From a virus (Duplodnaviria > Caudoviricetes), in IMG/VR virus record IMGVR_UViG_3300023092_000001, positions 6,825-70,824 of that record: a stretch of DNA of 64,000 bases; one strand, 5' to 3'. The translations under genes and the position numbers were made by a program. Position 1 is the stretch's first letter; the number at the start of each line of letters is the position of its first letter. The notes below the pieces were generated by a model, which worked only from the letters and a program-made list of their open reading frames with translations, did not search any database and was not told the DNA's origin. Below are positions 1,184-37,438 of this stretch, one piece after another.

Positions 1184-1432
1184 TTACGACACTTTAGGAG
1201 GGGTGGAAAGGGGAATATCCAGGCGCTCCAGCCCAAAGAGGATCATGCCGTCCTTCACGTCCAGGGTCTTCAGCTTCGCCTCTAACTCTTCCGCGAACTT
1301 GCGGGCGAGTTGCCGCTGAAGGCCGTACCGTTTGCAGGTTTCGGGTGAGAGGACGAGCGTTGTGCGTCCATAGGTGGTGAGTTCGGCGGCTAGGCGCTCT
1401 AGGACAGTTTGAGGCGGTGGGGATTCGGGCAT
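1184..1432 (-). CDS. Hypothetical protein
   Basis: 82-aa ORF at the head of the leftward operon; preceded by TTGATC-N16-CATCAT-N6-ATG. Confidence 0.5.
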   Translation of the reverse strand: MPESPPPQTVLERLAAELTTYGRTTLVLSPETCKRYGLQRQLARKFAEELEAKLKTLDVKDGMILFGLERLDIPLSTPPKVS

Positions 1433-1483
1433 GAAAAGATGATGGCAGATTGTTGTTGCAGATCAATACGCATTCTGGCATCA

Positions 1484-1645
1484 GTGCGCACTGTGGCCTA
1501 TAAAAGGATTAACATGACCCTCCCACCCGCCCTCCTCAAGGAGGCGGCTGAGTTTGTGCCTCGTCGAGGCTTATCGGGTCTCGTTGCTCGACTTCTCAGG
1601 AAATGGCTGGACGAAAAGAAGAAGGAGAAAGAAAACGAAGTATGA
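1484..1645 (+). CDS. Ribbon-helix-helix DNA-binding protein
   Basis: From GTG 1484: KRINMTLPPALLKEAAEFVPRRGLSGLVARLLRKWLDE fits the RHH strand-helix-helix pattern; stop overlaps the next ATG. Confidence 0.6.
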   Translation: MRTVAYKRINMTLPPALLKEAAEFVPRRGLSGLVARLLRKWLDEKKKEKENEV

Positions 1646-2148
1646 GTGAAACAGCATTATCACGACCACACCTAGCCAAGTTCTGTGTGGGGCTTGGACT
1701 AGACATTGGCTTTGGGGGCGACGCTATCGTTCCCCACGCAATCACTTTCGATATGCCCCAGCCATACACCAATGTTGGTGGCGACAAGCAGATCATGCGT
1801 GGCGACTGCGCAGATCTGAGCATGTTCTGCGACGAGTCTTTGGCTTGGATTCATAGCTCCCATGTTTTGGAGGACTGGACCTATACTGATTTGGTGGGAA
1901 TTCTACGAGAGTGGCGTCGAGTCCTCAAACCAGATGGCGTGATCGTTACAAATTGCCCGGACCAGAAGAAATTTAAGGCGTACATCGCCATCAGCAAACA
2001 GGGGGATAATTTATCCCACAAGGAGCAGGACTTCTCCCTTCAGAACTTCAAGGATCGTGTCCTTGAGCCCACTGGGCCATGGGAAACGGTGTACGAGATG
2101 CCTGACGATGGGAAGTATTCTTGGTATCTGGCCGTCAAGAAAGTATGA
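1642..2148 (+). CDS. Class I SAM-dependent methyltransferase (small-molecule/glycan type)
   Basis: GLDIGFGG motif I and IHSSHVLED...EWRRVLKPDGV, typical of Methyltransf_11-like proteins; ATGA coupling at 1642. Confidence 0.8.
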   Translation: MSETALSRPHLAKFCVGLGLDIGFGGDAIVPHAITFDMPQPYTNVGGDKQIMRGDCADLSMFCDESLAWIHSSHVLEDWTYTDLVGILREWRRVLKPDGVIVTNCPDQKKFKAYIAISKQGDNLSHKEQDFSLQNFKDRVLEPTGPWETVYEMPDDGKYSWYLAVKKV

Positions 2149-2177
2149 ATTGCCTGATTGCTAGTGCCGTGTTAGTA

Positions 2178-2226
2178 GTTCGCCTCACCACCCAGTTTCC
2201 GCTGGATGGTGAGACTAACCTCAACA
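2178..2226 (+). promoter_or_regulatory. Conserved hairpin leader upstream of HNH gene 1
   Basis: GTTCGC-CTCACCA-c-CCAG-tttccg-CTGG-a-TGGTGAG-a-CTAACC-t-CAACA; same architecture as 6538..6587. Confidence 0.6.
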
Positions 2227-2240
2227 CGACTATTACTCGC

Positions 2241-2915
2241 ATGAAGGCTGAAAATACTGAAGCAGCGTCAAGCCCATTCCGCAATGGCGGAGGTAAATTA
2301 ATTGATCTCACTGGCCGAAAATTTGGAAGATTGTCAGTCATCGGTAGGCATCCACAAAACGCCAAAAACAAATCTCCGATGTGGGAATGCGTATGTGGAT
2401 GTGGCTCCGAGACTATTGTTAGTGGAACTCACCTTAGAGGAGGACATACGCAATCTTGCGGATGTAAAGGCAGGGAGGCTTTAGCTGGGCGATCATGTAC
2501 CCACAAAATGAGTAAAAGCGTTGAGCATAATACATGGTCAAAAATAAAAGCAAGGTGCCACAACCCAACAGATAAATGCTTTAGGTATTACGGAGCACGC
2601 GGGATCTCAGTCTGCGATAGATGGAGGTTCTCATTCGAGAACTTCTTTGCTGATATGGGTTTGCGACCAAGAGGAACAACCATTGATCGCATCGATAATG
2701 ATGGGAACTATGAACCGTCCAACTGTCGTTGGGCTACAAAAACTCAGCAAGCCAGAAACAAAAGGCGCTCTCTCAGATTTGAGTGGGATGGGGCTCTGAT
2801 GCAGATAAATGATATTTGCGACAAGGTAGGGATTCCCCGAGGTCTGGTTTATCAGAGAGTTAGGGCAGGATGGGATCATTACAGGGCCTTCACACAGCCA
2901 ATTCGTCGATCATGA
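2241..2915 (+). CDS. Freestanding HNH-type homing endonuclease
   Basis: DLTGRKFGRL..WECVCGCG..SCGC..ARCHNP..YYGARGISVCDRW..FFADMG.RP..TIDRIDNDGNYEPSNCRWAT; classic phage HNH signature. Probable start ATG 2241, after the hairpin leader. Confidence 0.85.
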   Translation: MKAENTEAASSPFRNGGGKLIDLTGRKFGRLSVIGRHPQNAKNKSPMWECVCGCGSETIVSGTHLRGGHTQSCGCKGREALAGRSCTHKMSKSVEHNTWSKIKARCHNPTDKCFRYYGARGISVCDRWRFSFENFFADMGLRPRGTTIDRIDNDGNYEPSNCRWATKTQQARNKRRSLRFEWDGALMQINDICDKVGIPRGLVYQRVRAGWDHYRAFTQPIRRS

Positions 2916-3877
2916 CTCCAAAGCTTTTTATTTGCAGTTCTCACGCATCAGGCGAAATCGACCCCACGATGATGGCGAACCTCTTCGCTCATCTGCCGAA
3001 TCGCGTTGCATCTGCCCATGAAGCGGACGCCGTGATCGTGGTGGTTGGGTATAGTGGAGACTACCGGTTCAACGAGGCTCTCCGCAGCATCTCGAAGCCC
3101 ATAATCCTGGTCGATTTGCTTGAGTACTTTGGGTTTTGTAGCAACCGCACGCATCTTTTTGGGATCGACGAGCTTCCGCCTAACATGCTTGGCGTGGGTG
3201 AATGGGGCACTCTGGATGAGTGGGTAAAGCACAATCCACCAGCTCTTTACTTCAAGAGGGAGTTATGGGAGGCAGATCGGCATGAGAAACTTCTTCCCAT
3301 CGAGTGGCCGTGCGTTCTTGATGCCTGGGCCATCGAATCCAAGGAGGCCTTCGACCGACGCCCGTTCCAGCTTTATTATTCTTGGGGATATTCCAATCCC
3401 ATCCGCCCGCGCCTCGCCTCGGAGATCTACGAACTCATGGCAGATGGCCTGATTGAGGTCATCGCCTCCCATGACCATATCGACGCCAAGCTCCACGAGA
3501 CCAATCGCCGATGGGTCAGCGTTCATGTCCCGCATACCCACCGCCTCCCTATTGGCGAGCTGATGCGCAGGCAGGCTCAAAGCAAGATGAGCGTGTCGCT
3601 CCCTGGCTCTGGGCGCTGTTGCTTCAGATCGACAGAAGCGCCTCTGCACACCGTTCCTGTGATGCTTGATGACGGCCACGCGTGGTCTCATCCCTGGATT
3701 GAAGGCGAGAACTGCATCCGCATCAACGAGTATCAGATGGGCCGACAACTAGAGCGTGAGACTCAACGCGACGATCTCCACCCCATCTACGTTGCGGCTC
3801 AAGAGAACTTAGAGCGGTATCGCACGATCCCGTACATCAACAACTACATCCTGCCAGCTATCGAAAGAGTTTTATGA
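2912..3877 (+). CDS. Glycosyltransferase, exostosin/GT47-like (GT-B) candidate
   Basis: C-terminal SKMSVSLPGSGRCCFRSTEAP..TVPV resembles the exostosin S.F.L.P.G.G...R..EA....PV block; N-terminal EADAVIVV also fits. Confidence 0.55.
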   Translation: MTPKLFICSSHASGEIDPTMMANLFAHLPNRVASAHEADAVIVVVGYSGDYRFNEALRSISKPIILVDLLEYFGFCSNRTHLFGIDELPPNMLGVGEWGTLDEWVKHNPPALYFKRELWEADRHEKLLPIEWPCVLDAWAIESKEAFDRRPFQLYYSWGYSNPIRPRLASEIYELMADGLIEVIASHDHIDAKLHETNRRWVSVHVPHTHRLPIGELMRRQAQSKMSVSLPGSGRCCFRSTEAPLHTVPVMLDDGHAWSHPWIEGENCIRINEYQMGRQLERETQRDDLHPIYVAAQENLERYRTIPYINNYILPAIERVL

Positions 3878-4395
3878 TCACCCACTTCTTTGTTTTTGAT
3901 GTTGAATCAGTTGGCCTTCATGGGGAGGCTTACGCTGTTGCTGGCGTCGTTATTGACGGCTCAGGCACTGAGCATCTAGCCTTTAAGATGGCGGTCAATC
4001 CAGCGAAGTGCGAGGGGGAGGATGGCGACCGCAAGTGGATTGCTGAAAACGTGCCATTTATAGAGGTGACGCACCAAGAGTCCGTGAAGATGCGCGACTC
4101 ATTTTGGTCCCTATGGCTAAGGGCCAAGGGTGACTATCCTGGGATTGTAATGGCCTCTGAATGCGGCTGGCCTGTAGAATCCAGATTCCTTAATTCAGTG
4201 ATCGACGATGCACGCCATGATCGAAACTGGGATGGCCCGTATCCACTTCATGATGTGGCCTCAGTAATGTTGGCCGCTGGGATGGACCCAATGGCTACCT
4301 ATGACCGGCTTCCAAATGAAGAGCCCAAGCATTGCCCGCTGGCTGATTCTCGTCAGTCTGCTCGGTTGTTGCTTGAGGCGCTAAATACCCTATGA
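3874..4395 (+). CDS. DEDDh 3'-5' exonuclease-like protein
   Basis: FVFDVESVG (ExoI), LHDVAS, and HCPLAD (ExoIII HxxxxD). Confidence 0.7.
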   Translation: MITHFFVFDVESVGLHGEAYAVAGVVIDGSGTEHLAFKMAVNPAKCEGEDGDRKWIAENVPFIEVTHQESVKMRDSFWSLWLRAKGDYPGIVMASECGWPVESRFLNSVIDDARHDRNWDGPYPLHDVASVMLAAGMDPMATYDRLPNEEPKHCPLADSRQSARLLLEALNTL

Positions 4396-22702: not shown

Positions 22703-23574
22703 GCGCACTGAAGCTGAGTATTTGTATGGCGACGTTCGATGATTTCGATGGAGTTTCTTTCTCGATTCAGGCTATCCGCATGTACCACAATCTACCTGAT
22801 GTGGAGTTTGTGGTGCTCGACAACAACCCAGACGGAGCCCACGGAAAGGCTGTAAAGCAGTTCCTCCAGGACATCCCGAATCACAAGTACGTCGAAGTTC
22901 GGGATCGCAAGGGAAGCTGGGTGAAGTACTTGGCGGCTCAACATGCCTCACCTGATAGAGACATCGTTTTGGTCCTCGATTGCCATGTGCTGCTCGTGCC
23001 TGGGTTCTTTGACGCGCTCTTCACCTTTTGGGAGAACAACCCCAGGAGTGCCAATATGCTGACTGGGCCGATCATATACAACCGTTTCGATGCTATCAGC
23101 ACGCACATGGACCCTGTGTGGCGAGGTCATGACTTCGGCATCTGGGCAAATCACCCCGACCACGCTCTAGGTCTGCCGTTTGAGATCCCTATGATGGGTA
23201 TGGCCTGCTTTAGTTTCCTCCGCCGAGCTTGGCAGCCGATTACGCCGCTTGTGAAGGGATTCGGCTCCGAGGAGTGGTATATGGCCGAGCACACGCGTAG
23301 GAACGGGGGTATCATTGTTTGCCACCCAAAGATGCGCTGGTGGCACAGGTTTGGCAGGCCATTAGGGATTCCGTTTCCCATCTCGGTCGAGGACAAAGTC
23401 CATAATTACTACGCTGGGTGGCTCGATCTTTATGAAACCTTGAGTCACCCTAGGATCGTGGAGATGAGCCGCTGGTGGTGCAAGGAACCTCAGGCTAACG
23501 GAAGGCCTGTGCTGAGTGAGGGTGTGCTTCGAGGGATTGTGCGCGGGATTACGGACGAGAAGCTTGTGCTGTAG
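22699..23574 (+). CDS. GT-A glycosyltransferase (GT2-like N-terminus; DxH and ppGalNAc-T-like C-terminal motifs)
   Basis: LSICMATFDD, EFVVLDNN, LVLDCH, P.MGMACFS, GFGSEE, NGG....P..RWWHRF. Confidence 0.75.
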   Translation: MSALKLSICMATFDDFDGVSFSIQAIRMYHNLPDVEFVVLDNNPDGAHGKAVKQFLQDIPNHKYVEVRDRKGSWVKYLAAQHASPDRDIVLVLDCHVLLVPGFFDALFTFWENNPRSANMLTGPIIYNRFDAISTHMDPVWRGHDFGIWANHPDHALGLPFEIPMMGMACFSFLRRAWQPITPLVKGFGSEEWYMAEHTRRNGGIIVCHPKMRWWHRFGRPLGIPFPISVEDKVHNYYAGWLDLYETLSHPRIVEMSRWWCKEPQANGRPVLSEGVLRGIVRGITDEKLVL

Positions 23575-23608
23575 GGAAGAGCACATCCGGTAAAGGTGGG
23601 CGCAGGGG

Positions 23609-24130
23609 TTAGGCTAGAGAGGAAAGTTTGATGTCGCCCGACCAACCCCGTTGCCAATGCATCGCCCCAAGTTGAAAGCCAGACTGCGGAAACTCCTTCG
23701 GCATATCGCATAGCAGGATCTCCTTGAGACCGAAGCCTGCCGCCTTCACGTCGCGCACACGGGCCTTGGTCCAACAGTGGTTGACTGTGATGAGGAAGAC
23801 GATGTTATCCGCAAGCTGCATGGAACGTTGCAGGAATGGGCGGAAGAGGGACCAAGGCGGGTTTGTGATGATCCATGTGTATCCCTTCTGAAACTTGGCA
23901 TCCAGAAAATCGCGCCCCTGCTTGATTTCACACCAGTAACCACCATCCAGCGCCGTCCATTCATGCCTCTCGTTGTAGGTGTCAAAAGCCTGAATAAAAG
24001 CACCATCACCACTACATGGCTCCAAGACTGTTCCTCTAGGGCGAAAGTGCGACACAATGGCATCCGCCAAAGCTTGTGGCGTCTGCACGTCGTCATTGCT
24101 GACGTAATCTCGGTTTGGCTGGCTTTTCAT
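23609..24130 (-). CDS. N6-adenine (amino) DNA methyltransferase, orphan
   Basis: TPQ.LA, VLEPCSGDGAF (motif I), ITNPPWS (motif IV); no cognate REase nearby. Confidence 0.85.
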   Translation of the reverse strand: MKSQPNRDYVSNDDVQTPQALADAIVSHFRPRGTVLEPCSGDGAFIQAFDTYNERHEWTALDGGYWCEIKQGRDFLDAKFQKGYTWIITNPPWSLFRPFLQRSMQLADNIVFLITVNHCWTKARVRDVKAAGFGLKEILLCDMPKEFPQSGFQLGAMHWQRGWSGDIKLSSLA

Positions 24131-24888
24131 AATGTTGTTTCTTGCGTTTCTCTTCTCTGCAAAACCCCTCTCTCAGGAACCCTATTTCCTTCGGGACGAG
24201 TCCGGCTTTCGGGGCATAGCTCGCCCATTGCTGGGGAGCCATGTTGAACACCTTCTCCTTGCGGAACTGAGATGGTTTCAGGACATGTGGGCGTGAAGAT
24301 GATTGGCGGACGCTGCATTGGCCTCGCGCTTTCCCTTGAGGCTCGCCTACTTCTTCCCACTCGCTCGCCGGACGGATTGAACATCCCTGCTTACCTGAGT
24401 CACAAGCGCTCAGGATTACCACGCCGCACTTTCGGTCAGGCGTGGCACGTCTTGGGTTTCTACTGACAGAAGGAAGATTTCAGGGGGCAGGTCGCTACTC
24501 CTGCTATGCGCCACGTTCGCGGGTCACTGTTTCCCGCGTTACTTTCACGGGAGGCAATTCGAAACGCCAGGATAGCCTGCTGCGCGTGTCTCTCGATGAT
24601 GGACGATTACGTCTAAGACCTCATCGTATTGGCTTCCACGCCGCCCCTGAAATCTTCCTTCAAATCGTGACCGAAAGCAGAGTTGAGCGGGCCGGGTGGG
24701 ATCAATACTTTTCACAAACTCCCCAGCAACGTCACCTCCAAGTGACCCGAGAGCAGTTCACTCGCGATGTGCTCGCTTGACGCTACTGGCTCTCCGCTTT
24801 TGCCGCTCAACTCTACTTTCAAATCATTCCGCCCCTTCGCCGTCTCGCTGACTCCGCAGAGTGCTGCACGGCTCTAAAACAAGGCAAC
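24131..24888 (-). ncRNA. Candidate large structured non-coding RNA (unassigned family)
   Basis: No convincing ORF; two 18-bp long-range helices and at least seven local hairpins; mismatches resolve as G-U only on the minus strand. Confidence 0.5.
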
Positions 24889-24918
24889 AAAAAAGCTAGG
24901 CCGTTGCGGGGCCTAGCT
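24889..24918 (-). terminator. Rho-independent terminator downstream of terL
   Basis: Minus strand AGCTAGGCC-ccgcaac-GGCCTAGCT followed by a T run. Confidence 0.8.
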
Positions 24919-25015
24919 CAGTTGCAGATTCGCAAGTGGCAAGATCGCTCCCGCAACGGGCGAATCCTTATGTCTAACAGGATTCTGCCACGCCCCCAAA
25001 ACTCTGCAACTAAAA

Positions 25016-26917
25016 TCATGCAGCATAAATCCCCTGGAGAGCAGAAAACCGCTTCTTTATTGGGTTTGGCGCTCCTGGCTCCTTTCGGTCAGCAGGCTTA
25101 TCATCAGAAATTAACTTATGCCTAGTAATACATAATTGTAGGCAAATGAACGAGGCGTCGACCACGTCTGGAGAAGTTTTCGTCCTCCCCTTCATCTCAC
25201 GCTTTGTCTCGACGATGATTTTGTTATCCTTTGCCATCGGCTTTGTCTCGCGGTATTTCCGAGTCACCATCTCTGCGGCCATTGGCTTCCCGATGCCCCT
25301 CAGTTGATCACCTCGGAGAAGCGACTTGCCTGCGTACCAAATCTCACTCACACGGCGGTCATATCGGTCTCGGCACTTCACGTTAGGCTCCATCTTCGAC
25401 ACCGGCTTATCGCTAGGTGCGCCAGAGAAATCGACACTCAGGAACTTGCTCGTCCACTGCGAAATGATGGCATCACGGAAGGCCTTGCCCCCAGGACCGC
25501 TTGCATCAATGGCTAGATTCTCAGGAAGCACGCCTTGCTTCTCGCACTCATCACGCAACTTCCTAACAATCTGTGTAGTTCGGTCAATATCCTTGATGCG
25601 CGTGTCCTCGTTGATCTCAACGAAGTTCTGAAACTCCACGGTGAGACGTCCCTCAACTGACATGCCGATCTTCGCGAAGTAGAGGATGGAGCGGTCTCCG
25701 TCATGGGTGAAGCTTACATCAAATCCCGCCACCATCGTCCACTCGCCACGCCACACAGCAGGCTTGAAGGCGTTACTGAAGAGCAGGTCTCCTTGGGTGT
25801 AGATCGTCTGTTCGGCAGTGGCAGAGCACCACATGCCGCGAACACCACGATAGTAGGCTGGCGTGTTGCGCCCACCCTCACGACGAATGGTATCTTCCAT
25901 CTGCTGCTGAGTCATCAGGAAGTTGTAGATCACCTTGCCCTCCAAGATGTTAGGCGATAGCTCCGCATCTAGGCGAATCACATGCCCACCCTTGCGACTG
26001 TTCCAGTCATAGTCATCGTCCCCAACGGATTCCCATCCAGTCTCTGGCTCGCACAGATCTCCAAAGGCATCGAAGTACGTTCCAGGGTTCCCCAGACCGA
26101 TGAGTTGGCAGTTGTGGTTTCTAGACAAGTTTTCGTCGAATGTGTTTACCAGCGAGTGTCCGCACTCAGGGTGCTCGTCGATAACTAAAATAATAGGGTC
26201 TCCTTTCACGCCTCGAATCTCGTCCGCTGACTTCGCTTCCTGTTTCGCCTCGCCCGCCACTAGCTTAATGCCACACGTGCGGTCAGTCTCTCCAGTTTGG
26301 AGGTTGTGGTAACAAATGAGATACTCCGACGCCATAAGCTTACCGCAAACCGGAGCTATGATGGCGTTCCAATAGCTGATCACCTTCCCCCAAATACGAT
26401 TGTTAGCCGCCCCTTTGGTTGTCGAGGTAACGAGGATCATCGCTCCTGACTGAGGAAAGATCTCACCGTTTTGACCTGTGATGGAATACGGCGCTGGATT
26501 GCTCAAGAAGTTGATGATGGCCCAAATGGCAAAGAAGTCGGACTTGCCTGTAGAGCCAGCCCCAGCCACGCCCAAGCGTTTGTATTTACATGCCGCTTTG
26601 AGCATACGTATGGCGTCAGGATGCCAAACGAAAGGCTTGGTGCTCCCTTGGTAATTCCACAGGATGTCCACAATCTGCATGAAGTGATACCACCTCGGTT
26701 TACCCTTAGTTGGAGTCCCGTCCTTGAAAGTCTTCACTACTCGCGAGACGCCATTCTTGTCCTTGGCAATAACCTGAGAGCCGAATGGGTTGCGAAACAG
26801 CGCTAACTCTTGAGAGAGTGGAGACTTCTGTGGAGTTGCCCACTTCACCCCGTAATCTGGCATGGGACGTGGCGGTAGAACGCCCTTCGGCTTTTGCGGG
26901 GGCTTCTTAGTTGCCAT
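25016..26917 (-). CDS. terL: Terminase large subunit
   Basis: Walker A GAGSTGKS, Walker B ILVIDE, GNP coupling motif, RNase H-like nuclease GFDVS, IDASG and C-terminal SPDVVDA. Start trimmed to MATKK (26917; 26926 or 26935 possible). Confidence 0.9.
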   Translation of the reverse strand: MATKKPPQKPKGVLPPRPMPDYGVKWATPQKSPLSQELALFRNPFGSQVIAKDKNGVSRVVKTFKDGTPTKGKPRWYHFMQIVDILWNYQGSTKPFVWHPDAIRMLKAACKYKRLGVAGAGSTGKSDFFAIWAIINFLSNPAPYSITGQNGEIFPQSGAMILVTSTTKGAANNRIWGKVISYWNAIIAPVCGKLMASEYLICYHNLQTGETDRTCGIKLVAGEAKQEAKSADEIRGVKGDPIILVIDEHPECGHSLVNTFDENLSRNHNCQLIGLGNPGTYFDAFGDLCEPETGWESVGDDDYDWNSRKGGHVIRLDAELSPNILEGKVIYNFLMTQQQMEDTIRREGGRNTPAYYRGVRGMWCSATAEQTIYTQGDLLFSNAFKPAVWRGEWTMVAGFDVSFTHDGDRSILYFAKIGMSVEGRLTVEFQNFVEINEDTRIKDIDRTTQIVRKLRDECEKQGVLPENLAIDASGPGGKAFRDAIISQWTSKFLSVDFSGAPSDKPVSKMEPNVKCRDRYDRRVSEIWYAGKSLLRGDQLRGIGKPMAAEMVTRKYRETKPMAKDNKIIVETKREMKGRTKTSPDVVDASFICLQLCITRHKLISDDKPADRKEPGAPNPIKKRFSALQGIYAA

Positions 26918-26972
26918 AGTTGGCATATATTGCATTGCAGTTTCCACTCTCGCCACTAAAATAGGCCCACCG

Positions 26973-30466: not shown

Positions 30467-33400
30467 ATGGCATCATGGGACGAATTTCCGTTGGCTCAAC
30501 CTGCCGCTCAAAGCAGTTGGGATGCCTTTCCTTTAGCGGCTGAACCCAACGCTGACCGGGGGTACGCGGCCCAGATTGGAGACGCCCTGAGCATCGGTTT
30601 AAGCCAAGTTAACAGCGGCACACGAGCTACTTGGAACGCCGCCACAGGCGACAATGTAGATCTCGCGGCAAACCTTGCTGATTATGGTGCGGCGGCATTA
30701 GCGCAACAGAATCTAGAAACCCCAGAAGATCGCGCTTTGTCTGCGGCGTTTGCGAAAAACGCTCAGGAGCTCAATGATGCGAAAGGCTTCTTCCCGTCCG
30801 TAGCGGCGGCCTCAGGCTATGTTGGCTCCGCTTTGGAGCATCCTGGAGCGGCGGTAAAACAAGCTGTCCAATCGGCACCCAATGCCCTCATATCCCTTGG
30901 CACGCAAGTTTTGGGTCGTGGGCTTGGGGCGGCGGCGGGTGGTTTGGCTGGTATTGAGACTGGCCCTGGTGCTATTGTTACAGGCCTCGTAGGCTACTTC
31001 GGAGGGGGCGTGGCGGCTAACACGCTGATGGAATCAGGCCCCGCGATCTTCGACATCCTCAACGAGAAAACAGGCGGCAGGGCGGCAAGCATGACCGCGC
31101 CCGAGATCGAGGCAGCGCTCAGGGCTGATCCGACAATTGCTACCGAAGGCTTGCTGCGTGGAGCTAAGCGTGGGGCAACTATTGGTGTAGTCGAGGGCCT
31201 TGGTCAGTATGGTGCAGGCCGCTTAGTAGGGGCAGCCGAACGAGCCTCCGTGCGTGCGGTTGAGAAGACATTGGTGGATCAGGGTGTTGATCTAGCCAAC
31301 AAGGCCGCTGTCCAGGCTGCTCTGGAAACTCCAGCCATTCGTGAAGCTGCGTCCGTTGCCGCTAAAGCCGCCGAGGCTGGGTTTAGCAATGCAGGCACCG
31401 CTGCTCGTTGGGCTGGGGCTTCGACCATCGAAACTGGAGCTTCGGGCCTGGGTGAGGCCGGGGCTCAAGTGGCAGCAGGACAAGATCTCGACACCACTGG
31501 AATCTTTCAGGAAATGATGGGTGACGCTGTCATGTCCCCAGCAGCTACAGCCGTTGGCAAATCGGTGGCCTTAGCAGGCTCTGGCGTTGACATGCTACGT
31601 GGGACGAATCAACCCCTTCCCGCCATCGTGGACGAAGTGGGCGCAGACCTCACGCAGGCCGAGCTTCCTCCTCCAGTTAAGCTGGCTACAGAGGTCGCTC
31701 AGGCCGCTGCCCCTGTGGCTCCCGCATCATCTGCTGCTCTCATGCAGGTGACGGCGATGTACGCGGAGCAATCCCAAGCTCCTGTTGTCCAACAAGAGGC
31801 GGTTCAGGATGAGATCGTCCAGCCTATAGAGGAAGTAGTCCCAACTCCTGCGGTTGAAGCCGAGGTTTTGGCTGACGCCCCACTCTTTCCTGCCGCCCCA
31901 CCCATCGCTCGTGCTACGACAGAAGAAATGGCCCGAGATGCGGCTGGGGTACTAAGTGGCGAGATTGCGCCTAACGCACAGCCCGCAGCCTTGCTTCCTC
32001 CAGCGGAACAGCTAATCGAAGCCGCTCCTCCCGAGATGCCAAGCTTCGCATCCTACTTACGCGAGAGAGTTCCTGCTGATAAATGGTCGGACGCCGATAT
32101 TCAGGCAGGAGAGGCCTACGCTCAAAGTGGTGGCGACTTTTCGGCCATCAGCGGCCTATCTCGTGTCAAGCAACGTGCTCTCACACGGATGCTGCAAGAG
32201 TTCTCGCCCGAGATCAGAACAGCACAGGAGATGGCTGAAGCGGAAGCCGATGCAGCCTTCAGAGCACGCAACAAGGAGCGCCCAGACTCGCCAACGCTGG
32301 CTGATGAACTAGCTCAACTCCAAGCTCTGCCGATCAATATTGAGTCAGCCTCCATTTCCCCCGAAGGAGAAACACCAAAAGCGGGCCCAACCCCTCGTGA
32401 GCCATCAATTCCCAAGGCCGAAGCCTATCGCATCCTAGCTGAACGATTGGGCCTAACGAACTTTTCCAACATCGTTCTCGGCAACTACGCGCCCTTGAGT
32501 AACGGCACTGTACTGAAGGGATTCGTATCTCAGAACAGCGACAAGATTTACCTCAATATGGGGTCAATCCACGATGCTGACACGCTGGTTGATGTTTTCA
32601 ATGAGGAGGCGGTTCACTTGGTCTACCGAGATCCTCAGGTCGCTAAAGAATGGGCGCGGCTCAAGGAGCTGGCATCTGACGAACAACTTGAGCAATTGCG
32701 CCGAAAGTTCGACCGCCTTGGGTACAAGGATTCGGTGTGGGACGAAGAGGCCTTTGACGAAATCGCCCGAACAAAAGGCTTGGAGTGGCTGGACACACCT
32801 GCTTGGAAGCGCTTCTGGGAGTCGGTCAAAGCAGCGGTCCGCCGTCTATTTGGCCTAACCGACACCACGGAAATAAACCGAGTTGGGGCTCAAATACTCT
32901 CCTACGCTCTGCGCAATCAGCAGCAGATGGCCGCTGATGCGGTAGACTTTGCGGAAGCTCGTGGCGAGAGCCCGATTCGCATGGCCGTAGGGGGCTTGGA
33001 TGAACAGCTTAGCCAAGCATCCCAAGCACTAAAACGTAAAGCCCAGGTCTCGACCGAGAGTGTGAGATCCGCGTACACGCTGGCGACCCAAGGAAAGTCC
33101 AGCCGATCAGTTTCCCTTAAGGAGCTGTACAACCGCGTCAAGGAGTCCAACCCCGAGGTGACGCCCACTCAGTTCATCGCTCAAATCCAAGCGATGGATC
33201 AATCGGGCGATGCGCTTTTGGAGGTTTTTGATAATCCTCAGCAGCTTCAAGAGGCAGGAGAATTCCAACTCAAGAACGCGAGCGGAATTCCTGCCGTGTC
33301 CGTGATCCTCCCAATGTCAGACACCGAGGCTAGGTTTGCGCTTGAGGAACCCACCCCCGAAGAGAAGCCTCGCGCCAAGGTAATGCTCGATCCTGTGCTC

Positions 33401-36400
33401 GCCGCTCGTGAGGCGTCGGCTAATTACCCTTCGACAGACGTTTCCCCATCCCCAGAAACTTCCCAAACATCTCAAGGACGCTTCCAAAGCCCTAAGGAAG
33501 GCGCAGACCAATACGATCCCATTGCCGCATCTGACGCTCAGGCCAAGGTGGATGCATGGCTGGCGGGCAAGCCTCTGGAAGAAGCTTACCAGGAGCTTCG
33601 CGGGACGATGCCGGATGATATGCGTCCAGGAAGCCCCTATTTCAATGCAGCCTTAGTAACGGTGATGGAGAAGATCAAGGGCGCATTTGACGCCACCCAG
33701 TCCGCAGACGTAAAGGAAGAACTTCAGGCGATGGCGGACCGATTGGGGCGTATGTATGCGCAAGAAGGAACCGCAGAAGGACGCGCCCTCCAGTCTCGCA
33801 TCGTCAGCAATGCGCGCCTCACCCCCATGAAGGGATGGTTGGCTGTGCTCAAGGTTCTGGAAGATCGTCAAGAGAGCTTGATCAAGAATCGCTTCAGAGG
33901 CGATCCAGCGGCTGAGTTCGAGAAAGTGAACGAGATAGCCAAACCCGAAGCGGGCGAGGTTGTGGCAAGCATGCTAGATGAAGACCAGTCCGTTGCCATT
34001 AACGAGGCGGAGACCGATGCCGCTATCGAGTCGGCTAACGACACGATGGCTCGTGAGGAGTTCGAACGCATCTTGGCCGAAGTCCGCGAGGAGTACGTCC
34101 AGACCCTCGAAAAGGCTAACGCCGAGGCTCTCCGCGCCTGGGAGGTATCCCAACGCCTCAACGCTAAGAAAGCCAGTCGCACAAAGGCTGTAGAGTCCTC
34201 GAAAGCTCGCGTGGAAGAGGCATGGGCTCGTATCCGCAAGCGTGAGGGACAGACAAATCTGCCTCTTTTCTTCATCAACCCCGCCAACTTGGCAGACTAC
34301 GGCTCTATCGTTGCGGAATACATCTATCAGGGTGTAACCAAGATTTCGGAACTCAAGGATATCATCATCCAGGACTTCGGACCAGAGTCCGAGCCTCATG
34401 TCCAGGAGCTTATCACGGAGGGCATTTCCCAACATAATCTGCGCATGGAGCAGGAAGGTGTTGCAGTTCCTAAGGCCGCAAAGACTGCCAAGGACAAGGC
34501 CCCAGCCAAGCCTCGTACCAAGAGTGTGAAGACCCTTATGCGTCAGCAGTCGGAAGCCGGTGTGAATAACTACGAGGAAGCTGTGCAGAACGTGGCTCAA
34601 GCGCTATCGCTAACTTCCGCCGAAGTGAAAGCGCAGCTTGCGGGTAAGCCGCCCTCTGCCGAAGTTCTTGCCAATCGCGAGCAACGCCGGAAAGAGTCCG
34701 CTGAGCGTTATGCCAGCCGCTTAATCTACCGTACGGAAGAGAGATTCCGCCAAGGCTCCAAAGATCTAGACGACGGCGCTGGTGGAGACACGATCAACAG
34801 GGCTTTTCGCGAACAGGTGGTTAGCCCGCTTCAGCAGGATGAGTTTCGCGCTCGACTTGCTAAATTGAAGGTAGGTCCAGAAGTGGCAGACCGACTCGCC
34901 CTAACCGCTGAGAGGGAGGCTACAGATCAGCAAGCGATGCTCTTGTTTAAGGAGTCTCAAAAGGTCGCGGACGCCAAGGAGTCCATCCTCTCGAAGGCCT
35001 CTCCAAAGTTGGCAAAGATGGTCAACGAACTCCGCAAGAAGATCGCTCCAGGCATGACTTGGGCTGACATCTTTGCCGACCTTCCTGACAAGCAAAAGAG
35101 CCGTCAGCTTTCGATCTACGACCGCTTGCTCAAAGACGAACGCCTCCAAGGCCTAACGCCTGAAGAACGCCTCGATCTCACCAACGAACTCAACCGCGTC
35201 TGGCAGGTGGAGCGTCGCAAGGTGTTTAATCGTGAACTCAGCAAGTTTGGCATTCTGGGAGAGAAGAGTGAGGAGGACACCAAGAAGATCAAGGCGGCTA
35301 TTCCGCGCCTCATGCGGCAGCTTAATCTCGGCCTCTTTAACTCTGAGATGTTCAGGCAGGCGATGGCGGAGCAGTACGGCTTGCGTAGCATGACTTCCGC
35401 CGAGTCACAGGAACTCCAGCGTCTAGGCCAAGAAGCATGGAATCTACCCGAGGGCAGCATTCAGCGCCGTAGAGCCTTGCAGGCCATGCTGGACAAGATG
35501 CAGACCCTCACTGGTGCGAGTAAGTGGGAGTTGCTCAACAATTACTGGGTGGCCTCCGTGCTCTCGGGCCTGCGCACACAGTTCGATACGCACATGGCGT
35601 TCCTCAACGGAGCCGCAACCATTGCTCGCCTTGCTCCTCAGCTTGCTTTGCGCGGCAAGCGCGGAACGGCGACGATGATCAGCGAGTACTTCAAAGGCTT
35701 GGGTGAGGCCGCGAGAGAGGCTTCACGCATCATCCTAGATGGCGACTTCTCGTACCTGAAGCGCAACGAGGAGAGCGTGATGGCTGCTATTGATGGGGAC
35801 ACCGCAATCCGCGCCACCCCCATCAGCGAGCGCATGCTCAGCCAAGGCAACTGGTGGCACAAATACCCAGCCTTAGTGATGAGCATCGTCTCGCGCAGCA
35901 TGTCGGCAGCCGACCATCTCAACAACACCGCCACGAGTCGTGGAGCGATGGTTTATGCGCGGGCCATGAACCCCGATTTCTACAAGGGGGCGCTGACGCC
36001 ATCTCCACAGGAGCGTGCCGATGCCCGTAAACAGGCCATCCTTGAACTATTCGCTGGCGTAGAGCCAAGGACTTCCAAAGAGAAAGCGGACACCACCGCC
36101 CGCACGCGTGAGATCCTCAATCAAGCCGAAGCCCCCGAGACATTGGAGGAGGGCAACCAGATTGGTGACATTGCCTCATACCAGAACGACCCCACAGGCC
36201 TGTTTGGCGGCTTCTACGAGCTACTCAAGGGCATGTCTCAGTCTTTGGAGCGTCGGGCCACGGACTTTTCCCAAGATGACGAAGTGAGTAAGACCTGGAG
36301 AGCGATTGCGGCCTTTGCGGCAGTTACTTTCCGCAGCCTTATCGGCACTCGCTTTGCCCGCTTTGCCACCAACTTCGCAAGCAACGGCACCTCCTTTATT

Positions 36401-37438
36401 CCTGGGACTTATCTTGCGAAGACCCCCCTCTACGGGCGCAACCTCACCAAGAGCCGAGACAGCCTGATCCTCGCCAATAACTTGATCGGGGCGATGACGA
36501 TCTTGGCCGTTGTGTCCAAGTTTGGGGATGAGGGAGACGATGATGATCTGTGGATTGACGGCACTTGGGCCGGGTTGCCTTACGCTAAGCAAGCAGAGTT
36601 GCGCACCTCTGGACACGAGCCGTTGTCTATCGGATGGCGTGGCAAGGATGGTAAGGTCCACCGTATCAGCTACAGGCAGTGGGAGATCGGCAGCATTCTG
36701 GCCTCCGCTGGGGCGTGGCTGGACAAGCGCAAGTACATGCCGGACAAGTTTAAGGAGGAAGGCCTCCCAGGGCACATCCTGGCCTCGGTCGCGAATGGTG
36801 CGGCTTACGTCAAGGATCTGAGTGCGCTCTCAACCTTCACAGACCTCCTGGGTGTGGGGGCGGGAACAGCCCAAGACAAGGGCGCTGACTTCGCTAAGAA
36901 GATCAACAAGGTGGCGGCAAACTTCGCGGGCGGATTCATCCCCAACACGCTCAAGGATGTGGACGCCTATACAGACCCCAAGGTGTACAAGCCTGACAGC
37001 GCCATGGAAGTCTGGTTCCGTGGGGTGCCTATGGTGCGCAGAACGGTCGCTGGCGGTCGTCCGATGCTCAACCTACTTGGAGACCCCGTGGAACTCGACC
37101 GGAGCCCATGGAGTCGTGTTTACACGGACACAGACCAAGGCTCTGGTTACGATGAGTTGGCTAAGCTCCAGAATCGCGGTATTTGGATGCCAACCCCCTC
37201 CATGACGCGCATCGTAAAGCGCAGTAATGGGGAGAAGGCGACTATCGAATCCCTGGGACAGGACGTGGAGTACAAGTATCAGAAGAGCGTGGGCAAGAAA
37301 TACCGCGCCTACTTGATTGAGAACGGCCCCGACTTCGCGAAGATGACAGACGAGGAGGTGGAGAAGGCCATCAATCGTGACACCGAACGGATTCGCATTG
37401 AGGCGTCCGACGAGCTAGTGGACCAACTGAAACTGTAA
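30467..37438 (+). CDS. Giant DNA-ejection / large polyvalent protein (2323 aa)
   Basis: Duplicated N-terminal SWDxFPLA, Gly/Ala-rich membrane-active segment, degenerate zincin-like domain (NEEAVH), long helical body, C-terminal LNLLGDPV region. Confidence 0.75.
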   Translation: MASWDEFPLAQPAAQSSWDAFPLAAEPNADRGYAAQIGDALSIGLSQVNSGTRATWNAATGDNVDLAANLADYGAAALAQQNLETPEDRALSAAFAKNAQELNDAKGFFPSVAAASGYVGSALEHPGAAVKQAVQSAPNALISLGTQVLGRGLGAAAGGLAGIETGPGAIVTGLVGYFGGGVAANTLMESGPAIFDILNEKTGGRAASMTAPEIEAALRADPTIATEGLLRGAKRGATIGVVEGLGQYGAGRLVGAAERASVRAVEKTLVDQGVDLANKAAVQAALETPAIREAASVAAKAAEAGFSNAGTAARWAGASTIETGASGLGEAGAQVAAGQDLDTTGIFQEMMGDAVMSPAATAVGKSVALAGSGVDMLRGTNQPLPAIVDEVGADLTQAELPPPVKLATEVAQAAAPVAPASSAALMQVTAMYAEQSQAPVVQQEAVQDEIVQPIEEVVPTPAVEAEVLADAPLFPAAPPIARATTEEMARDAAGVLSGEIAPNAQPAALLPPAEQLIEAAPPEMPSFASYLRERVPADKWSDADIQAGEAYAQSGGDFSAISGLSRVKQRALTRMLQEFSPEIRTAQEMAEAEADAAFRARNKERPDSPTLADELAQLQALPINIESASISPEGETPKAGPTPREPSIPKAEAYRILAERLGLTNFSNIVLGNYAPLSNGTVLKGFVSQNSDKIYLNMGSIHDADTLVDVFNEEAVHLVYRDPQVAKEWARLKELASDEQLEQLRRKFDRLGYKDSVWDEEAFDEIARTKGLEWLDTPAWKRFWESVKAAVRRLFGLTDTTEINRVGAQILSYALRNQQQMAADAVDFAEARGESPIRMAVGGLDEQLSQASQALKRKAQVSTESVRSAYTLATQGKSSRSVSLKELYNRVKESNPEVTPTQFIAQIQAMDQSGDALLEVFDNPQQLQEAGEFQLKNASGIPAVSVILPMSDTEARFALEEPTPEEKPRAKVMLDPVLAAREASANYPSTDVSPSPETSQTSQGRFQSPKEGADQYDPIAASDAQAKVDAWLAGKPLEEAYQELRGTMPDDMRPGSPYFNAALVTVMEKIKGAFDATQSADVKEELQAMADRLGRMYAQEGTAEGRALQSRIVSNARLTPMKGWLAVLKVLEDRQESLIKNRFRGDPAAEFEKVNEIAKPEAGEVVASMLDEDQSVAINEAETDAAIESANDTMAREEFERILAEVREEYVQTLEKANAEALRAWEVSQRLNAKKASRTKAVESSKARVEEAWARIRKREGQTNLPLFFINPANLADYGSIVAEYIYQGVTKISELKDIIIQDFGPESEPHVQELITEGISQHNLRMEQEGVAVPKAAKTAKDKAPAKPRTKSVKTLMRQQSEAGVNNYEEAVQNVAQALSLTSAEVKAQLAGKPPSAEVLANREQRRKESAERYASRLIYRTEERFRQGSKDLDDGAGGDTINRAFREQVVSPLQQDEFRARLAKLKVGPEVADRLALTAEREATDQQAMLLFKESQKVADAKESILSKASPKLAKMVNELRKKIAPGMTWADIFADLPDKQKSRQLSIYDRLLKDERLQGLTPEERLDLTNELNRVWQVERRKVFNRELSKFGILGEKSEEDTKKIKAAIPRLMRQLNLGLFNSEMFRQAMAEQYGLRSMTSAESQELQRLGQEAWNLPEGSIQRRRALQAMLDKMQTLTGASKWELLNNYWVASVLSGLRTQFDTHMAFLNGAATIARLAPQLALRGKRGTATMISEYFKGLGEAAREASRIILDGDFSYLKRNEESVMAAIDGDTAIRATPISERMLSQGNWWHKYPALVMSIVSRSMSAADHLNNTATSRGAMVYARAMNPDFYKGALTPSPQERADARKQAILELFAGVEPRTSKEKADTTARTREILNQAEAPETLEEGNQIGDIASYQNDPTGLFGGFYELLKGMSQSLERRATDFSQDDEVSKTWRAIAAFAAVTFRSLIGTRFARFATNFASNGTSFIPGTYLAKTPLYGRNLTKSRDSLILANNLIGAMTILAVVSKFGDEGDDDDLWIDGTWAGLPYAKQAELRTSGHEPLSIGWRGKDGKVHRISYRQWEIGSILASAGAWLDKRKYMPDKFKEEGLPGHILASVANGAAYVKDLSALSTFTDLLGVGAGTAQDKGADFAKKINKVAANFAGGFIPNTLKDVDAYTDPKVYKPDSAMEVWFRGVPMVRRTVAGGRPMLNLLGDPVELDRSPWSRVYTDTDQGSGYDELAKLQNRGIWMPTPSMTRIVKRSNGEKATIESLGQDVEYKYQKSVGKKYRAYLIENGPDFAKMTDEEVEKAINRDTERIRIEASDELVDQLKL

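Follow-up and report, generated by a model that had tools for sequence, protein, structure and literature searches.

The question raised by this locus is what a long stretch without genes, between two neighbouring genes of a phage, could encode. The phage is uncultured; its genome is complete, with a length of 70.8 kb and direct terminal repeats (IMG/VR record), and the window, i.e., the whole stretch of 64,000 nucleotides which was analysed, is a part of it. The genes are mostly on the plus strand, with a minus-strand island of two genes, for proteins of 639 and 173 amino acids (aa). The gap between these two genes measures 885 nt and is the longest which was seen; further stretches of 400–760 nt are also devoid of open reading frames (ORFs) of at least 100 aa. 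Our analysis makes it likely that the element in this gap is a gene for a structured noncoding RNA (ncRNA) of an uncatalogued family, located at 24131–24884 on the minus strand and, as predicted from the sequence, about 650–750 nt long in this phage.

Flanking genes

The gene upstream of the element (25016–26935, minus strand; the mechanical ORF extends to 27142) encodes the 639-aa protein and is probably that of the terminase large subunit (terL), as judged from an ESM Atlas feature score of 0.98 and from structure matches to clusters of Terminase_6N and Terminase_3. No match to this protein was present in Pfam, PHROG or PDB sequences; its homologs showed identities of 31–69%. One of the homologs, P0011 (911 aa), exceeds the other relatives by about 300 aa and contains a Hint (intein) domain.

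The downstream neighbour (23609–24130, minus strand), which lies outside the RNA, encodes a methyltransferase of 173 aa of the gamma-class (NPPW), N6-adenine type. The protein matches phrog_799, annotated as DNA methyltransferase, with an E value of 2e-30, contains the motifs LEPxxGxG and NPPW of gamma-class N6-adenine enzymes and showed a weak match to M.TaqI. The designations of the flanking genes as terL and DNA methyltransferase had been given already in an earlier note on this DNA and agree with the terminase clusters of the ESM Atlas and with phrog_799, respectively. A split methyltransferase was considered, the 173 aa covering only positions 204–370 of the 458-position PHROG profile, and was rejected, since homologs which are complete at about 170 aa exist in large numbers. 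The nearest cellular homologs are almost all from Verrucomicrobiota, mainly from Opitutaceae; together with the prophage copy of the element described below, this suggests that the host phylum may be Verrucomicrobiota.

Architecture of the element

All parts of the element are read on the minus strand. Just upstream of the RNA is an intrinsic terminator-like hairpin with a U tract (24885–24919, with the hairpin at 24893–24919), which consists of a 10-bp stem followed by TTTTTTG. The 5' leader (24826–24884) is presumed to hold the start of transcription. A promoter of the sigma-70 type was not found at the window element; the leader sequences GCGGAGUCA and GCAGCACU are common to the window and the prophage copy.

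The leader is followed by two units of the same layout: flanks GAUUU (5') and (G/U)GUCA (3'), a closing helix of 18 bp, and an interior with several hairpins. Unit 1 (24668–24825), with the flanks GAUUU and GGUCA, is closed by the helix 24803–24820/24673–24690 around a variable interior of 112 nt; its paralog, unit 2 (24464–24666), has a perfect closing helix (24644–24661/24469–24486) and an interior of 157 nt. Stretches of 24 nt which include the 5' arms of the two units are 79% identical (repeat family D1), and where the 5' arms differ, the partner arms differ complementarily. With covariance model R1 (see below), the minus and plus strands scored 85.9 and 26.7 bits, respectively, for unit 1, and 117.7 and 29.8 bits for unit 2.

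Both closing helices had been pointed out in the earlier note as long-range helices of 18 bp, and were found as described there, with 18 of 18 complementary positions (157 nt apart) and 17 of 18 (112 nt apart); the one position of the latter which is not complementary reads as U-G on the minus and as C-A on the plus strand, as had been claimed. The note had also proposed one large structured RNA between terL and the methyltransferase gene. The structured RNA stands, but the helices close two paralogous domains, and the element is not bound to terL.

In unit 2, the first interior hairpin (GCGUG...CACGC, 24584–24641) carries an extra inserted hairpin in the window phage, and the last one (GCAGG-loop-CCUGC, 24487–24504) is stacked on the closing helix. 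The 3' domain contains a hairpin with a conserved GACYGA loop (24417–24447), whose stem differs among loci and is fully paired, and a GNRA tetraloop hairpin (UUCC-GCAA-GGAG, 24255–24266), which has GAAA loops and different stems in other loci. A conserved GGCUCC motif (24235–24240) follows 14–20 nt after the GNRA hairpin in the window, L098, L091 and G005. The 3' tail (24131–24234) reaches up to the start codon of the methyltransferase gene; no terminator was seen there. The local hairpins proposed in the earlier note (24321–24342, 24394–24414, 24419–24445, 24487–24504, 24518–24538 and 24731–24746) are present in the sequence and in the minimum free energy (MFE) fold of the minus strand; the GNRA hairpin TCC-GCAA-GGA is present as well, but its position had been given with a shift of 2 nt and is 24256–24265.

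Several minor features were observed. The loop UGACCGAAAG of the GACYGA hairpin (24429–24438, minus strand) is a perfect 10-nt complement of the linker CUUUCGGUCA following unit 1 (24668–24677), which, from the sequences, might make a tertiary or kissing contact; this complementarity is only partial elsewhere in the family, with 5–6 pairs including wobbles. A second copy of UGACCGAAAG is located inside the 3' end of terL (25082–25091). T-arm-like hairpins are found inside some unit interiors, namely GCGGG-UUCGAAU-CCCGC (L006, 2945–2961), GGCAG-UUCGAUU-CUGCC (unit 1 of L091) and one at 24558–24573 of the window. The arms were also compared with attC sites (GTTRRRY core); this was rejected, the order of the core sites being reversed and unit 2 being without cores.

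Homologous loci

Pattern scans and a covariance model yielded five further loci, four on metagenomic phage contigs and one in a prophage of Verrucomicrobiota. With the window, where two units follow after terL, the family comprises six loci, and the arms are nearly identical in four of them. L006, which is the same locus as L096, is from a phage of 61.9 kb, contains three units and was found by blastn against loci of methyltransferase relatives; three blocks of it are 96–98% identical to the four arms of the window, and the remainder is unalignable. Pattern scans of metagenomes provided L098 (three units), a close relative with a terL gene 93% identical in DNA, L091 (three units), a short contig, and L089 (two units), with a different gene context. 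The prophage copy, L256, has one unit and resides in the genome of a Phragmitibacter sp. (G005; Verrucomicrobiota); it was detected with 48.9 bits by model R1, which had been built from the 13 units known before this copy. The third unit of L098, L096 and L091 is a more distant paralog.

Between otherwise diverged phages the arms are conserved at 96–100%. The unit interiors, of 52–186 nt, are too different for alignment, even in the pair of the window and L098.

No further members were found by blastn in phage GenBank records. In the GTDB species genomes, the arm pattern gave 57 matches, none of them with a partner arm. Scanning of IMG/VR with patterns of the unit-3 arm, the junction and the GACYGA hairpin resulted in the contig of L006 as the sole genuine match; nineteen identical prophage matches and four proteobacterial matches were discarded, since the stem is absent and they look like chance or another sequence. 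Likewise, L082 and eight metagenome matches were not accepted as members, because they had no partner arm. A covariance-model search of 151 Verrucomicrobiota genomes, with only 19 candidates scored per genome, missed the known positive G005 for this reason and hence does not speak for absence from these genomes. A full-text search of the literature found no description of this RNA.

Comparison with RNA families and search for coding signals

The earlier note had left open whether the RNA belongs to a known class (GOLLD, ROOL or HEARO) or is new. There was no match in Rfam 15, and it is thus new to Rfam. The cmscan search with Rfam 15 gave no match at the gathering score in the whole window; for the region 23500–25500, with E values up to 10 allowed, three matches at chance level were obtained, all to eukaryotic families, and for four homologous loci only a T-loop match of 17 nt to the tmRNA model. 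GOLLD, ROOL, HEARO, OLE and raiA did not reach the gathering threshold, and covariance models of tmRNA, tRNA, RNase P, group I and II introns and self-cleaving ribozymes did not match. ARAGORN detected 0 tRNA or tmRNA genes in the window and L006.

The short ORFs of the gap, for which a protein-coding signal had been considered in the earlier note, showed no frame-specific conservation. When the loci were compared in six frames, matches occurred in every frame and on both strands, and only over blocks which are conserved as nucleotides; furthermore, interior lengths differ by non-multiples of three. ORFs within the gap had no match in Pfam or PHROG. An ORF of 112 aa on the plus strand had no relatives among 5.8 billion protein clusters, except for a fragment from L089.

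Covariation, folding and strand

Covariation among homologs, which the earlier note had proposed as a check, was present in the closing helix: in an alignment of 13 units, both sides vary in 13 of the 18 pairs, and pairing is kept in 97.9% of the cells. For the whole tested structure, i.e., the closing helix and the last interior hairpin, 17 of 23 pairs change on both sides, with 93.2% of the cells paired; none of 500 shuffles reached the observed values, and sliding of the partner by 1–3 columns reduced the pairing to 41–52%. Much of the covariation signal is between paralogous units and not from many independent lineages. An alignment from the model search (A4), which mixes both strands, was left out of the counts. 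Orthologous change was seen in unit 3, with three compensatory double changes between L091 and L098; between unit 1 and the unit of the prophage there are four such changes, besides one A-A mismatch.

The interior hairpins vary in a similar manner. The first hairpin GCGUG/CACGC is also found after the 5' arm of unit 2 in L098, L096 and L089, and of unit 1 in L091; its place is taken by GUGCG/CGCAC in G005 and in the second unit of L091, which amounts to two compensatory changes. The last interior hairpin (helix 2 of the tested structure) has the variants GCAGG/CCUGC, GUGAG/CUCAC, GUAGG/CCUAC and CUUGG/CCAAG; four of its five pairs change on both sides, and 74.6% of the cells are paired. In the 3' domain, the GACYGA loop was recognised in the window, L098, L096, L091 and G005, on four different and fully paired stems (UGCCACGCC, GGCGUC, GGGC and UCCCGGC). 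The counterparts of the GNRA hairpin are CCC-GAAA-GGG in L098, GUCCC-GAAA-GGGGU in L091 and GAGC-GAAA-GCUC in G005. These hairpins of the 3' domain were matched by eye and by script; the MAFFT alignment of the 3' domains was poor, and RNAalifold was unusable on it.

The folding energy, which had been suggested earlier for comparison with dinucleotide shuffles, was lower than that of the shuffled sequences, with z values of −4.9 for the minus strand and −3.9 for the plus strand (20 shuffles each), and is only modestly unusual. Its GC-corrected residual was the most negative of 44 segments (the 43 others, of 758 nt, being from the same genome), only about 2 standard deviations out. Thermodynamics alone is thus not striking, and the case therefore rests on the comparison with relatives. 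Other inverted repeats of at least 18 bp with a spacing of 40–260 nt were not found outside the element when both strands of 84 further phage loci, with a total of about 600 kb, were searched.

As to the strand, the cells of the closing helix contain 11 G-U pairs and 6 mismatches when read on the element strand (minus in the window), versus 3 and 14, respectively, on the opposite strand; counted as independent events, the bias is roughly 7–8 versus 2–3. The GNRA loops are readable only on the minus strand of the window. Terminator-like hairpins on the element strand precede the element in five of the six loci, with different stems; in L098, L096, L091 and G005, a hairpin with a T-run, of differing stem sequence, is located 55–100 nt before the first unit. 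In L089 a terminator lies directly after unit 2, and in L091 a weak hairpin with a U-run follows GGCUCC. A contrary sign is a mid-helix A-C mismatch in unit 2 of L096 and L091, which would be G-U on the opposite strand.

The comparison of units and loci shows base pairing which, as read from the sequences, has been kept by selection and which reads best on the minus strand. We regard it as very likely that a structured RNA on the minus strand is real. The proposal of the earlier note, a large structured ncRNA transcribed in the direction of terL, thus agrees with the covariation of the closing helix, the G-U bias and GNRA loops of the minus strand, the absence of a coding signal and the presence of five other loci.

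Gene context and mobility

In three loci the element is situated right after terL. Homologs next to related terL genes had been anticipated in the earlier note; this was the case for L098, but four terL relatives with 62–69% identity have no gap, and converging genes follow directly after terL. Similarly, four relatives of the methyltransferase (68–73% identity) and L002 are without the gap, other genes directly preceding them. The phage of L006 (G001) has no homolog of the window terL. The element of the G005 prophage is found on the opposite strand and lies between a gene for a protein of 2540 aa and the portal gene, to both of which it is antisense; a gene for the terminase small subunit is located a few kb before the element. 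Because relatives of both neighbours occur without the gap, G001 is without this terL and the context in the prophage differs, the RNA and its upstream terminator would appear to be an accessory module which was moved between unrelated phages. The gene contexts show the element to be a mobile accessory module, as far as sequence comparison can tell, which occurs in phages unrelated to each other and in a prophage, with hosts of the Verrucomicrobiota type.

The stretch between the terL stop codon and the terminator (24920–25015 in the window) is identical in L098 and partly conserved in L091 (approximately 770–830), where it reads CCACUUGC.A.UCUGC.ACUGAGC and where no terL homolog was detected upstream. 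Because of this partial conservation without a detected terL, the mobile module may start before the terminator. In the G005 prophage, an ORF of 41 codons for a small hydrophobic protein is present just upstream of the element, on the same strand (L256, approximately 1750–2010, minus); beside it is an extra hairpin (GGCA..AGAUUGCU / AGCAAUCU..GCC), and the terminator comes then.

A small methyltransferase gene adjoins the element in three of the four readable contexts; it follows the element in the same direction in the window and L096. The methyltransferase of L006/L096 (225 aa; L006 3647–4324) is 79% identical to that of the window in its C-terminal 107 aa, and the N-terminal 118 aa are unrelated to the window protein and match no methyltransferase profile. 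By its sequence, the gene looks chimeric, and the protein may be without the SAM-binding motif I. The methyltransferase gene of L089 is convergent, and its product belongs to a different family, with 22% identity to that of the window. This protein (2832–3461, plus strand; 209 aa) is of the NPPF type and matches Pfam MTS (small methyltransferase domain), as well as PHROGs with profiles of 1259–3925 positions; the length of the profiles suggests giant phage proteins which carry a methyltransferase domain. Beside the prophage element no methyltransferase was recognised.

Possible function and alternative explanations

The element has a modular build, with a short 5' leader, one to three tandem paralogous domains, of which the window phage has two, and a 3' domain. 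Each tandem domain is, by its pairing, a multi-branch fold closed by a nearly perfect helix of 18–19 bp, and the 3' domain is composed of the GACYGA-loop hairpin, the GNRA hairpin and the GGCUCC motif. We propose that transcription begins after the upstream terminator and ahead of the first domain. The RNA would act in trans as a stable fold and would most likely serve during infection as a scaffold or decoy, to which a protein would bind by the helices and junctions, and not as the leader of the methyltransferase mRNA. The long perfect helices may be suited for double-strand-specific binding, or may be RNase III sites, by which the domains would be freed as separate hairpin RNAs; processing by RNase III is conceivable, though we are doubtful about it. 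Because the element often adjoins genes for small adenine methyltransferases, the RNA may travel in a counter-restriction gene island, and perhaps serves it. Antisense targets of the conserved arms were not found beyond chance in four Verrucomicrobiota genomes at up to two mismatches.

A different function would be that of a long structured 5' leader of the methyltransferase mRNA, acting in cis, e.g., as a sensor for a ligand or protein which controls translation or read-through. In the window and L096 the element runs into the co-directional methyltransferase gene with no recognisable terminator in between, and here co-transcription as a leader may well occur; in L091, too, a gene starts just after the element, and the 40 nt which immediately precede its ATG resemble those of L096. 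The co-directional position upstream of a methyltransferase, seen in the window and L096, is not constant, however, and is lacking in L089 and G005: the only adjacent methyltransferase gene of L089 is convergent, with a terminator after unit 2, and the element of the prophage is antisense to both of its large neighbours. Moreover, homologs of the methyltransferase with 68–73% identity are without such a leader, the methyltransferase gene has an ordinary leader of its own, as was pointed out in the earlier note, and a number of domains varying from one to three would be unusual for a sensor. We consider a leader in cis unlikely as the general explanation, and on balance favour a stand-alone RNA.

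The element could also act at the level of DNA, with hairpins in single-stranded DNA as a signal for replication or priming, with recombination sites, or as invertible segments. With inverted repeats of 18–19 bp around 52–186 bp, the units have the layout of invertons and of certain origins; the arms are 96–100% conserved between otherwise diverged phages, and pairing with G-T wobbles would also suit hairpins of single-stranded DNA. Yet protein-binding sites in DNA need no compensatory changes between arms, and GNRA tetraloops and T-loop-like hairpins are motifs of RNA. For an inverton, the first and last interior hairpins should not be on the same side in every locus, as they are; no inversion was seen, and no recombinase gene is adjacent. 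For an origin, the region is not AT-rich (GC content 0.54–0.58) and contains no iterons. A DNA element thus seems improbable to us, although hairpins of single-stranded DNA are conceivable as far as the sequence goes.

There is only a slim chance that the units are selfish palindromic repeats (MITE- or Correia-like), inserted in tandem and of no use to the phage: terminal inverted repeats around a variable core, one to three copies per locus and a module in unrelated genomes would fit, but G000, G001 and the 6.4-Mb genome of G005 have a single locus each and the GTDB species genomes have none (pattern scan), the units are always accompanied by the same leader and 3' domain, and the interior hairpins are conserved with covariation. 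In the complete phage genomes G000 and G001 no dispersed copies were detected, the model finding the known tandem units only, and a search of the G005 genome with the arm of the prophage unit, at 0–1 mismatches, returned only the two arms of its one unit.

The small adenine methyltransferases as neighbours of the RNA lead to a concrete hypothesis on its role. The RNA could be a partner of the adjacent enzymes, either supplying specificity, as in RNA-directed methylation of DNA or RNA, or being itself the methylated substrate. Specificity supplied by the RNA is conceivable because the enzymes are catalytic Rossmann cores of about 170–210 aa with no obvious target-recognition domain, and the RNA is a conserved scaffold with fast-changing interiors. 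Against this partnership, close homologs of the enzymes are common without an adjacent RNA, and, from the sequences at hand, we would give it very little credence.

Relation to known systems

Large, intricately folded RNAs of unassigned function are rare, and new biology has come from them repeatedly, examples being ribozymes, OMEGA guide RNAs and the cages formed by the RNAs ROOL and GOLLD. The latter two, encoded by phages and prophages, belong to the large ornate RNAs (Weinberg et al. 2017, PMC5737381; cryo-EM by Kretsch et al. 2025, PMC12286853). The RNA described here resembles them in its size of about 450–750 nt, its occurrence in phages and prophages, the many hairpins, long-range helices and variable periphery, and in having no constant partner protein. 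In contrast, there was no cmscan match between them even at E values up to 10, the new RNA consists of tandem paralogous domains, one to three in number, and no tRNA genes are near it. Judged by sequence and predicted fold, it forms a new family, without a match in Rfam 15, in the known kind of large ornate phage RNAs. A variable number (1–3) of repeated long-stemmed domains is unusual among known large RNAs. The element moves among unrelated phages, whose presumed host phylum, the Verrucomicrobiota, has been little studied, and the RNA occupies space in the genome which otherwise would be annotated as empty.

With HEARO/OMEGA RNAs of IS200/IS605-family elements, the new RNA shares the combination of a large structured RNA and a protein gene on a mobile module, with a scaffold and variable parts. 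It differs in having no adjacent gene for IscB, TnpB or an HNH protein, the neighbours being methyltransferases or unrelated, and in the lack of an Rfam match.

Palindromic repeats of the Correia/MITE type are transcribed and cut by RNase III. The units are similar to these in their inverted repeats of about 18–26 bp around a core of 50–190 nt, giving long RNA hairpins which would suit RNase III; unlike such repeats, the new element is single-copy per genome and always within a larger conserved RNA.

The pRNA of phage phi29 has about 170 nt and a defined fold. It is likewise a structured RNA encoded by a phage, and here three loci have the element after terL, with the prophage copy between the genes for the terminase small subunit and the portal protein. 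However, the new RNA matches no Rfam family, and relatives of the terL exist without the element; phages with this terminase type are not known to require an RNA.

Giant proteins

Proteins of 2300–2540 aa with no match in Pfam or PHROG are encoded in the window (30467–37438), in the G005 prophage (L257, 7261–14883) and in the terL relative L161 (1–662); the giant protein of L161 showed a weak match to ART-PolyVal.
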